A DNA stretch of 64,000 nt from Mustelus asterias. Its lineage: Eukaryota. The stretch is from NCBI RefSeq assembly GCF_964213995.1, contig NC_135808.1, forward strand, positions 7,192,001 through 7,256,000, in the 5' to 3' direction. Position numbers and translations under genes: made by a program. Each line of letters starts with the position of its first letter. The stretch's first letter is position 1. The notes under the pieces were generated by a model. It had not been told where the DNA came from. It was given only the letters and a program-made list of their open reading frames with translations, and searched no databases. Shown one piece after another: positions 20,641-23,547 of the stretch.

Positions 20641-22595
20641 TGAAAAGGCATTGCACCCCATCTTGGGTGAGACCTGACTCTGGAATTTGGCCAAAAGGTG
20701 GAGGAGCACACCCCCTGCCAGGTAATCAAAGCCTCACCCCTGCCAGGTGGTTATGGTCTCAGCAGTACCAGATTATCATGGTTTGCCATGTACATTGCCA
20801 GTTAATAATTTAACAACTGCAAGCAAATTTCTCACAGATCACAACATTGCTGGAGTCAGCAAATATGTCCACTATCTTGCTATGGTTTAGCACTGGACTC
20901 TTTTCAATCTCATGAGGTGGAAGTTTGTAGAAAAACACAATTCTAGGTTCAGGTTTACCTCACTGTTCTGCGCCTTCTCAAAGCAACTTACAAAAGGGCG
21001 GCATGGTAGCACAGTGGTTAGCACTGCTGCCCCACAGTGCTAGGGTCCTGGGTTCAGTTTCCGGCTTGGGTCACTATCTGTGTGGAGTTTGCACATTCTC
21101 CCCGTGTCTGTGTGGCTTTCCTCCAGGTGCTCCGGTTTCCTCCCACACTCCAAAGATGTGCGGGTTAGGTTGATTGGCCGTGCTAAAGTTGCCCGTTAGT
21201 CTCCTGAGATGTGTAGCTTAGAAGGATTAGCAGGTAAAATATGTAGGGATATGGTGGTAGGGCCTGCGTGGGATTGTGGTCAGTGCAGACTCGATGGGCC
21301 AGATGGCCTCTTTCTGCACAGTAGGGTTTCTATCATTTCTAAAAGGAACAGGGGATCAAATTTAATATACCTTCAGGCAAGGAATGCCAGGGAACGATTA
21401 AAAGTACAAGTGTGACCACAAAAGCCTAATGTAATCATTTCCTCAATGATATTGAAAGGAAATGTTTTGCTACCAAATTGCAGCTAGTGTGTCCAACCAA
21501 GCTGCAGGGTCTCCCCACAAGGCCCAGGGGGCTCAGCAAGAGGGCAACGCTTAAAATGGAGGCCGTTCTCTGGGTCTGTGCTCAACTATTCCACAGTTCT
21601 TAAGTTCTTATGTTCTTATGTTTTAAAGTTTATCTATTAATGTAACAAGTAGGCTTACATTAATACTGCAATTAAGTTACTATGAAAATCCCGTAGTCGC
21701 CATACTCCGGCGCCTGGTCAGGTACACTGAGGGAAAATTTAGCATGGCCAATTCACCTAACCAGCACGTCTTTTGGACTGTGGGAGGAAACCAGAGCACC
21801 CAGAGGAAACCCACACAGACACGCAGACTCCGCACAGTCACCCAAGCTGGGAAGCGAACATAGGTCCCTGGTGCTGTGAGGCAGCAGTGCTAACCACTGT
21901 GCCACCGTGTAGATGTCTAATCAGTGAAACAAAAGGAACAGAAGCCTGAACCTAATCTGCATATAGCATTTAAGCACAGGAAAAAACTTGGACTTTGCCA
22001 ACTTGAAAGTGCTAAGAGTATGGCCATTTTTGCCAAGAATGTGCGTCAGGTGGTCAACAGGCTTCTGTGGCAGTTGAGCTGGTGCTCCGTGATCTATTAG
22101 ACATCAATATGTTCTGTGAAACATAAGCATTTGAGTACTGTGGTCACAATGAGGCCCAGAATTGGGGAAGACTCATACCAGATTAGATCGACCAACTTGC
22201 CTTTTCTTAAACCAATTCGACTCCAAAGTGCACAGAAAAGTGCAGGGGCCTAATTTTACCAAAGCGTCGCGCCCATTTTTGAGCGCGAAATCACGGTAAA
22301 GTTGGGCATCGTGCCTTTAACGCGATCTGCACCCGAATCCGAGCAGATCGCAGCTTTATCGACACCCGATTTTGATGCGGGTCTGGCCCGCGCCTGAATT
22401 GGGCGGCCCGACGATTTAAATGCATTTGCATTGGGGGAGAGGGGGTGTGACATCTCATCCTCTGGGGGGGGGGTGGGGGGGGGGGGGAGGTGGGAGGAAA
22501 GGGGGTGTGACCAATCATCCTCTAGTCGGGGGGCGGGGGGGGGGTTCCGCTGCCAGTCTGCGGCCGATCCCTCCTACCGGAGTGGATGTGCGGCC

Positions 22596-22750
22596 ATGCC
22601 ATCCCACAAAACCTTCAGGATGAAGTGATTCCTCGCTAAGAAGATGAAGCAGAACCGGCCGATTCCACAGTGGATCCTCATGAAAACCGGCTACAAGATC
22701 AATACAAGTCCAGGAGGAGACACTGGAGAAGGACCAAGCTGGGCCTGGAA
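22596..22750 (+). pseudogene. RPL39: RPL39 (eL39) processed pseudogene, left arm of an inverted pair
   Basis: Intronless [49 protein letters not shown]; premature TGA, 1-nt deletion, terminal stop replaced by GAA. Confidence 0.92.
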
Positions 22751-22861
22751 AAGGATACACCGTCACTGGTACACTACCAGCCACAGCCATCTCCCCCGCT
22801 CTCTTGCCCCTGCAGGAAGAGTAATCTGTAGCTGGTAGTGTACCAGTGATGGTGCATCCTT

Positions 22862-23016
22862 TTCCAGGCCCAGCTTGGTCCTTCTCCAGTGTCTCCTCTT
22901 GGACTTGTACTGATCTTGTAGCCCGTTTTCATGCGTATCCACTGTGGAATCGGCCGGTTCTGCTTCATCTTCTTAGCGAGGAATCACTTCATCCTGAAGG
23001 TTTCGTGGGATGGCAT
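22862..23016 (-). pseudogene. RPL39: RPL39 processed pseudogene, right arm of the inverted pair
   Basis: Near-identical reverse complement of 22596-22750 carrying the same three lesions. Confidence 0.92.
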
Positions 23017-23547
23017 GGCCGCACGTCCACTCCGGCAGGAGGGATCAGCCGCAGACAGGCAGCGGAACCCCCCCCGACCAGAGGATGATGCATCACACCC
23101 CCTCTCCTCTCCCCCCTACCCAGGGGATGATCAGTCACACCCCCTCCCCTCCCACCTCCCCCCCCCCGGCCAGAGGATGATCTGGGTCCCGCCCCCCCCT
23201 CCGCCCACCTCCCCCCCCTCCACCCTGACCAGAGGATGACCGTCAGAGAGCCGCTCTCTCCGCTTTCTGCTTTTTCTTTCTTTTCGAACTGCGCATGCCA
23301 GCTCCGATCGGTCCGCCAGCGCTAAGCCCCGCCCACAGCGCGAATCGGACTGGAGCTGGCAAAACGCGTATGGGCGCGCTGGAAAGAGGATTCCAGGTGC
23401 GGATCTATTTGATGCCCGGATTCGGCACTTAAACTCAAAATGGTAAAATTCCCCCCCAGGACTTGAAACAGAGACTTCTCGAAAGAAACACTGCAAGGGC
23501 TGCTTCTTTGTGCGTAGATGGGGATGTTTGCATGTGTATTATATCGA

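Follow-up and report, generated by a model that had tools for sequence, protein, structure and literature searches.

The window analysed here, a stretch of 64,000 nucleotides from Mustelus asterias (G000:C8:7192001-7256000 of a 3.68-Gb genome), contains a non-autonomous Harbinger transposon of 1,211 bp (22246-23456) whose cargo is an inverted pair of spliced RPL39 cDNAs. The element behaves as a Pack-type transposon, but its cargo is spliced, capture has been serial, fold-back recurs, and its copy number clearly exceeds that of the surveyed vertebrate cases.

Structure of the RPL39-carrying element

An earlier note, made from the letters of the window, had drawn Harbinger-like boundaries at these positions, and the terminal inverted repeats (TIRs) and the CAG target site duplication (TSD) on which they depend are present in the sequence. 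The following list gives the parts of the element and, last, a second member of its shell lineage that lies in the window:

22243..22245, no strand: left TSD, CAG, read in the sequence
22246..22260, + strand: left TIR, 15 bp, imperfect
22246..22431, + strand: left subterminal part of the Harbinger shell, with 71-82% identity to L268, L270 and L271 at their left ends
22432..22544, + strand: left G-rich minisatellite in the centre of the shell
22537..22786, + strand: left inverted-repeat arm, made of RPL39 cDNA and some 40 nt of shell sequence
22579..22825, + strand: spliced RPL39 cDNA, aligned to the parent-gene exons on G000:C14; last 17 nt of the 5'UTR, CDS 22596-22750, 3'UTR through 22825
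22626-22628, near 22702 and 22748-22750: cargo lesions, i.e., TGA, 1-nt deletion at the exon 2/3 junction and lost stop
22787..22825, + strand: spacer or loop, 39 nt, single copy, distal RPL39 3'UTR
22826..23075, - strand: right arm, second RPL39 cDNA copy plus shell sequence; ATG at 23016, TGA at 22984-22986
23070..23239, - strand: mirrored minisatellite, right
23240..23456, + strand: right subterminal region, including the right TIR (23442-23456), 71-84% identical to the right ends of the transposase-bearing L268, L270 and L271
23457..23459, no strand: right TSD, CAG, read in the sequence
10865..12603, - strand: second element of the same shell lineage, TSD ATT, different cargo

The arms are convergent, 250 nt long each, and differ by 13 mismatches, in agreement with the near-identical arms around a 39-nt spacer described in the note. 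The predicted fold had an energy of -515.6 kcal/mol (z = -40.8, 100 shuffles). The mirrored minisatellites of that description were also found; the right one is absent from empty shells, which are asymmetric. Two refinements apply to its UTR-like flanks: the spacer is RPL39 3'UTR, and the outer ~40 nt of each arm are transposon sequence without UTR origin. In other copies the spacer can lie either way relative to the element ends (see below). As had been noticed, each arm of this copy has all three lesions, namely the TGA, the deletion of 1 nt and the lost stop, and neither a poly(A) signal nor a tail was found in its cargo.

Other features were seen in the window. The second element (10865-12603) has a 36-bp minisatellite, and its cargo is made up of 125 nt of GC-rich sequence and 630 nt of AT-rich sequence, the latter with a 64-nt palindrome. 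Two immunoglobulin V-set exons lie on the + strand at 33494-33961 and 58361-58753 (Pfam E 2e-12 and 7e-13). A decayed RPL18A-like fragment at 52780-53080 (Pfam E 1e-4) is apparently a separate retrocopy, with no adjoining shell ends seen. LINE-type reverse transcriptase fragments and a GIY-YIG fragment occupy 36255-38924, 26555-27769, 16199-16935, 49054-49743 and 34381-34851; one of the LINE-type fragments has an 890-codon open frame with an endonuclease.

Harbinger membership and transposase-bearing partners

A 22-mer of the right end, common to the shell lineage, had 2,407 exact matches in the genome, and six of these loci were extended to 10 kb. Locus L270 carries a DDE_Tnp_4 fragment (PF13359, E 1e-28) between ends that are 82% and 84% identical to those of the window element, and L269 has a match to the same family (E 3.7e-17). 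L268 and L271 are elements of 5.6 and 5.9 kb with matching TSDs and the same transposase (tblastn matches inside). For the convergent ORF of the partners, language-model features gave Myb_DNA-bind_5 as first match (0.90) with 10 of 10 matches in that clan, which is a lead only, and none of three fragments of this ORF had a Pfam match at E 0.01. All partner ORFs examined were broken, and no intact autonomous element was found among them. These four loci are decayed Harbinger elements of the autonomous type (5.6-5.9 kb); their ends are those of the family, and their transposase and Myb/SANT-like ORFs converge.

With its TIRs, 3-bp TSD and partners that share its ends and encode a DDE transposase, the window element is a non-autonomous member of the PIF/Harbinger superfamily, and the earlier assignment of the shell to this type is borne out by the partners. 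The hallmarks given for vertebrate Harbinger transposons in the available part of PMC9179366 are TIRs, a 3-bp TSD and a transposase plus a Myb/SANT ORF. The present family shares the first three, and the second ORF of its long partners is a candidate for the fourth. The TIRs are shorter here, about 15 bp as against the usual 25-50 in that source. In the same part of that survey no Harbinger was detected in the elephant shark and host cargo in Harbinger is not mentioned, whereas such cargo is present here.

Copy number and mobilisation

A 24-mer over the spacer-arm junction had 1,447 exact matches in the genome (676 + 771), and the reversed-pattern control had none. The figure of ~2,200 copies that follows from these matches at 1.7% divergence per site is uncalibrated arithmetic. 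The junction with the frameshift was matched 1,090 times (reversed control, 0) and the intact junction 30 times. Both ends were recognisable in 91 of 127 spacer-bearing loci, and 15-bp imperfect TIRs were found in these 91 copies as in the window element. An exact 3-bp TSD flanked 62 of the two-ended copies and comprised 23 kinds of triplet, mostly A/T; among the remaining 29, many TSDs differed at one base. The target preference was palindromic, with A and C at -4/-2/-1 mirrored on the opposite side. The earlier note had held that copies with the same cargo and different TSDs would indicate mobilisation and that a single copy with neither transcription nor small RNAs would speak against its reading; the number of junction places and the variety of TSDs confirm the mobilisation and show that the element is far from single-copy.

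Palindromes are hard to assemble, and no single contig record was listed as spanning the junction. Nevertheless, it is extremely improbable that the palindrome is an artefact of the assembly or a local rearrangement that happened once, a reading already refuted by the copy data: the junction recurs with different flanks and TSDs, and the arms differ from each other at the 13 positions mentioned above. In addition, contigs of run X19, which is maybe the assembly's own sample, covered the junction bins at a summed depth of the same order as the arm.

Origin of the RPL39 cargo

The parent RPL39 gene was located on G000:C14. It has three exons separated by introns of 1.7 kb and 5.3 kb: exon 1 ends at 8582829 and includes the ATG and a GT donor, exon 2 spans 8584567-8584670, and exon 3 starts at 8589993 after a purine-rich splice acceptor. 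In the cargo exons 1, 2 and 3 are joined exactly and the introns are lost, which confirms the processed nature of the cargo proposed before. The cargo starts 17 nt upstream of the ATG and ends about 70 nt short of the parental AATAAA. The poly(A) tail and LINE target duplication typical of a retrocopy are lacking: no tail was found in the 30 copies inspected, where secondary loss is possible. The parent protein is identical to the shark/skate eL39 record P0122, and on this ground a foreign origin of the cargo was rejected.

The majority sequence of 144 arms differed by 2.3% from the parent mRNA, and the arms differed from this majority by 2.4% on average (1.7% outside CpG). In the window copy, 60 of 186 21-mers in one arm and 57 of 191 in the other matched the parent mRNA exactly, i.e., about one third, so any dsRNA made from these arms could target RPL39 (see below).

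Other cargos of the same shell

The survey of the shell comprised 83 loci from the first 100 right-end matches listed, including all of the first 30; 15 later loci, many of them beside known RPL39 matches, were skipped. Among the first 30 loci, 11 carried RPL39 and at least seven were empty shells of 0.8-1.1 kb without the mirrored centre. A fragment of the OPA1 GTPase (PDB E 1e-31) was present in 13 of the 83 loci (L198, L240-L244, L247-L249, L252, L259, L260 and L229), folded back with a 76-78-bp stem, and exact TSDs flanked 11 of them. A long form of the OPA1 cargo, with a C-terminal piece that reaches the stop codon, had at least 40 copies (loci including L273-L284), one of which, L274, presented more than 480 OPA1 codons without an intron. 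The OPA1 cargo has thus been mobilised as well. The coding region and 3'UTR of MRPL55 (Pfam E 3e-36) were found at three loci, L208 (260-1010) and L231 with TSDs and L212 truncated; at L208, 126 codons are uninterrupted by a stop. An exon pattern search for the OPA1 parent gene, including the splice acceptor, gave no match. The long uninterrupted reading frames, set against the structures of these genes, suggest that the OPA1 and MRPL55 cargos are spliced as well. In several cargos the first position falls on the same few bases in the centre of the shell, and no poly(A) tail was found at the 3' end of any of the three named cargos (RPL39, OPA1 and MRPL55).

Cargos without a Pfam match were seen at L209, L214, L211, L221, L227, L230, L246, L251 and L266. 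L209 and L214 share a multicopy cargo with 148-bp inverted arms of its own, and L211, L221 and L227 share a further multicopy cargo; L230 has a 125-codon open frame, and L214 and L246 have their own inverted repeats. Five other cargo frames and the second cargo of the window had no Pfam match under E 0.05.

Order of events and exchange between arms

The earlier note placed the inverted duplication after pseudogenisation on the grounds that both arms share their lesions. This dating fails because two of the lesions are not ancestral. The TGA was present in 19 of 144 arms (an opposite-strand CpG change was present in 16); the true stop was intact in 138 arms and changed to GAA in two, which are both arms of the window copy. 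The TGA and the lost stop are consequently not family traits. Of the three lesions only the 1-nt deletion extends across the family, with 142 of 143 typed arms carrying it. Element-specific alleles include this deletion and the I10M, N33Y and N38K sites. At locus L081 an intact frame accompanies the fold-back junction, and in L211, L221 and L227, which bear another cargo, the fold-back centre keeps a remnant of the RPL39 5'UTR. These loci suggest that the fold-back may have preceded the frameshift, a single copy with the intact frame being no proof of it.

Rare non-CpG variants common to both arms of a copy numbered 16 as compared with 1.5 expected (maximum 8.4 in 20,000 permutations), in a set of 47 two-arm copies that is non-random, many having been chosen by pattern. 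Occasional conversion from arm to arm would fit this excess; alternatively, it may reflect small sub-lineages.

A sister subfamily (L031-L040 and L107-L136) carries RPL39 once, mostly with an open frame and in most cases with M17V; an AT-rich tail of 640 nt comes after it. This arrangement was found in 28 of 30 intact-junction loci, and the frame was open in 22 of the 27 that were ungapped. The pN/pS of the intact-ORF copies was 0.64 (32 synonymous and 74 non-synonymous changes), uncorrected for CpG and transition bias. V is likewise found at position 17 of P0083, a publicly listed 'eL39-like' protein of a shark, and copies of the sister subfamily may be annotated as genes.

Decay and possible function of the hairpin

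We inspected 50 junction loci taken without selection: the first 30 in the list and the 20 that follow on C1. Both arms were kept in only three of these copies, one arm was lost in 10, and 24 had stubs on both sides, with the RPL39 coding part deleted. The orientation of the spacer relative to the ends was 45:31, plus three left-left and one right-right arrangements; both orientations are as expected from recombination between the arms. Transition mismatches that would leave G-U pairs were as frequent as those leaving A-C (124:122 for the orientation of the element and 146:135 for that of the spacer). Neither this ratio nor the retention of both arms gave any sign of selection to keep the pairing. 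CpG sites were decayed in 8.8% and non-CpG sites in 2.1%, about four times faster. In all, the hairpin is likely a functionless, decaying passenger, and co-option of a few copies would be compatible with the sample-wide lack of selection.

In the commonest derivative (L046, L049, L057, L061-L066 and L068) one and the same internal deletion affects both arms and leaves them ~60 nt long around the spacer; in this short-hairpin subfamily the RPL39 coding region is gone.

The earlier note had proposed that the cassette could make dsRNA homologous to a ribosomal protein mRNA, and on this reading the full hairpin copies would be transcribed and diced to endo-siRNAs or piRNAs that tune RPL39. The 250-bp stem with its low predicted energy, the 21-mers exact to the parent mRNA and the fold-back of a second gene, OPA1, are all in its favour, and three full hairpins in 50 copies extrapolate to the order of a hundred in the genome; moreover, endo-siRNAs derived from pseudogenes exist, according to the consulted part of PMC3616710. 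We nevertheless judge the role improbable, and the proposal found no support here: most copies have lost the RPL39 coding part of one or both arms, with stubs only in nearly half of the sample, the mismatches lack a G-U bias, and a scan of the 330 stop-free stretches, confined to the 150 longest, showed no host-gene exon close to the element, the nearest non-repeat match being at 33.5 kb. Two contigs from sequencing runs are uninformative on expression of the element. One, of 234 nt, from run X1 (guessed to be RNA, and labelled as another organism), has the family deletion and ends inside the spacer; the other, from run X7, covers exon 3 and the 3'UTR at a depth of 2,735 and is most simply host mRNA.

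The same low standing applies to a wider form of the idea, in which the Harbinger lineage would be a serial mRNA trap that, through a break-prone fold-back centre, acquires one spliced cDNA after another (RPL39, OPA1, MRPL55 and more), makes hairpins of them and, by carrying these to hundreds or thousands of sites, provides dsRNA templates for germline small-RNA pathways against housekeeping mRNAs.

Proposed origin of the element

From sequence comparison, the explanation that we consider probable has four parts. A spliced RPL39 reverse transcript would have entered the shell through repair of a break in its G-rich centre, joined at a 6-nt overlap. Repair synthesis would then have switched template and folded the centre back into the inverted pair. 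The transposase of the family itself would have spread the element in trans, and the copies would decay neutrally, the hairpin being a functionless passenger. The 6-nt overlap could alternatively be a remnant of the RPL39 UTR in derived families. Copies of spliced mRNAs are captured at DNA breaks in mouse zygotes (Ono et al. 2015, PMC4516963, as far as its accessible text goes); those breaks were made by CRISPR and lie outside transposons, and the process is a candidate route for the present case, to which we infer a link.

Another route of entry, which differs from this explanation only in that step, is retroposition of the cDNA by a LINE into a resident shell, with the fold-back later removing the poly(A) tail and the target duplication. 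RPL39 is a classic retroposed mRNA, and LINE reverse transcriptases abound in this genome (RVT_1 matches in the window). In the examined copies the RPL39 cDNA is truncated at its 3' end, so a tail or TSD may have been lost later; since the parental poly(A) signal lies ~70 nt past the captured end, the tail would have been deleted. The bat Helitrons gained retrogenes in this way, according to the part of PMC4224331 at hand. On the other side, the tail is missing from the RPL39, OPA1 and MRPL55 cargos alike, and the start of different cargos at the same bases of the shell centre is not predicted by random LINE insertion. We therefore regard LINE entry as possible although rather unlikely, and patching during break repair as the preferred route.

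Comparison with known systems and significance

In the open-access literature we found no report of this RPL39 Harbinger family; Repbase and Dfam, which lie outside that search, may hold it. One of the closest known cases in animals is that of the Pack-TIRs: across 100 reference genomes of animals, Tan et al. 2021 (PMC8277862, main text as available) reported four multicopy Pack-TIRs (1.4%), mostly hAT and TcMariner, with three copies in the example case. The words 'shark' and 'Harbinger' are absent from that main text, and intronless retroduplicates were discarded by design. Those elements and the present one have in common host sequence inside a TIR transposon, carried to new sites with distinct TSDs. 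A Pack-TIR cargo would be copied from genomic DNA, whereas here the cargo is spliced cDNA in a Harbinger shell with more than 1,400 copies.

Processed mRNAs, including a ribosomal-protein mRNA, have also been spread by a DNA transposon in vespertilionid bats, where Thomas et al. 2014 (PMC4224331, in the text available) described four retrogenes with 118 copies on Helitrons, among them RPLP0 with six copies. The bat elements are rolling-circle transposons whose retrogenes have poly(A) and TSDs, whereas the shark element is of the cut-and-paste type with no tails seen, at least 10-fold more copies and recurrent fold-back. In the fungus Pseudocercospora fijiensis, hundreds of hAT-borne copies of histone H3 were reported (Dhillon et al. 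2019, PMC6710886, same limitation of text). Both systems have a housekeeping gene, hundreds of dead copies, cut-and-paste movement and an intact parent; the fungal copies are inactivated by RIP, and neither an inverted pair nor serial cDNA capture is reported in the text consulted.

Multicopy gene-carrying cut-and-paste transposons are thus rare in the surveyed vertebrates, and retrocopy cargos were either excluded from the surveys or reach ~100 copies. Here, a single Harbinger shell appears to have taken up at least three spliced mRNAs, one of which was amplified to more than 1,400 sites. A word of caution follows for gene annotation: retrocopy counts in sharks and 'eL39-like' gene models can be transposon copies. 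Ancestral empty shells, intermediates and deletion products are found together in one genome, a natural series for the capture of RNA-derived sequence by a DNA transposon and for the formation, flipping and decay of palindromes. The family also bears on whether a pseudogene load of this size, a thousand-fold for an essential gene, is tolerated or silenced by the host.
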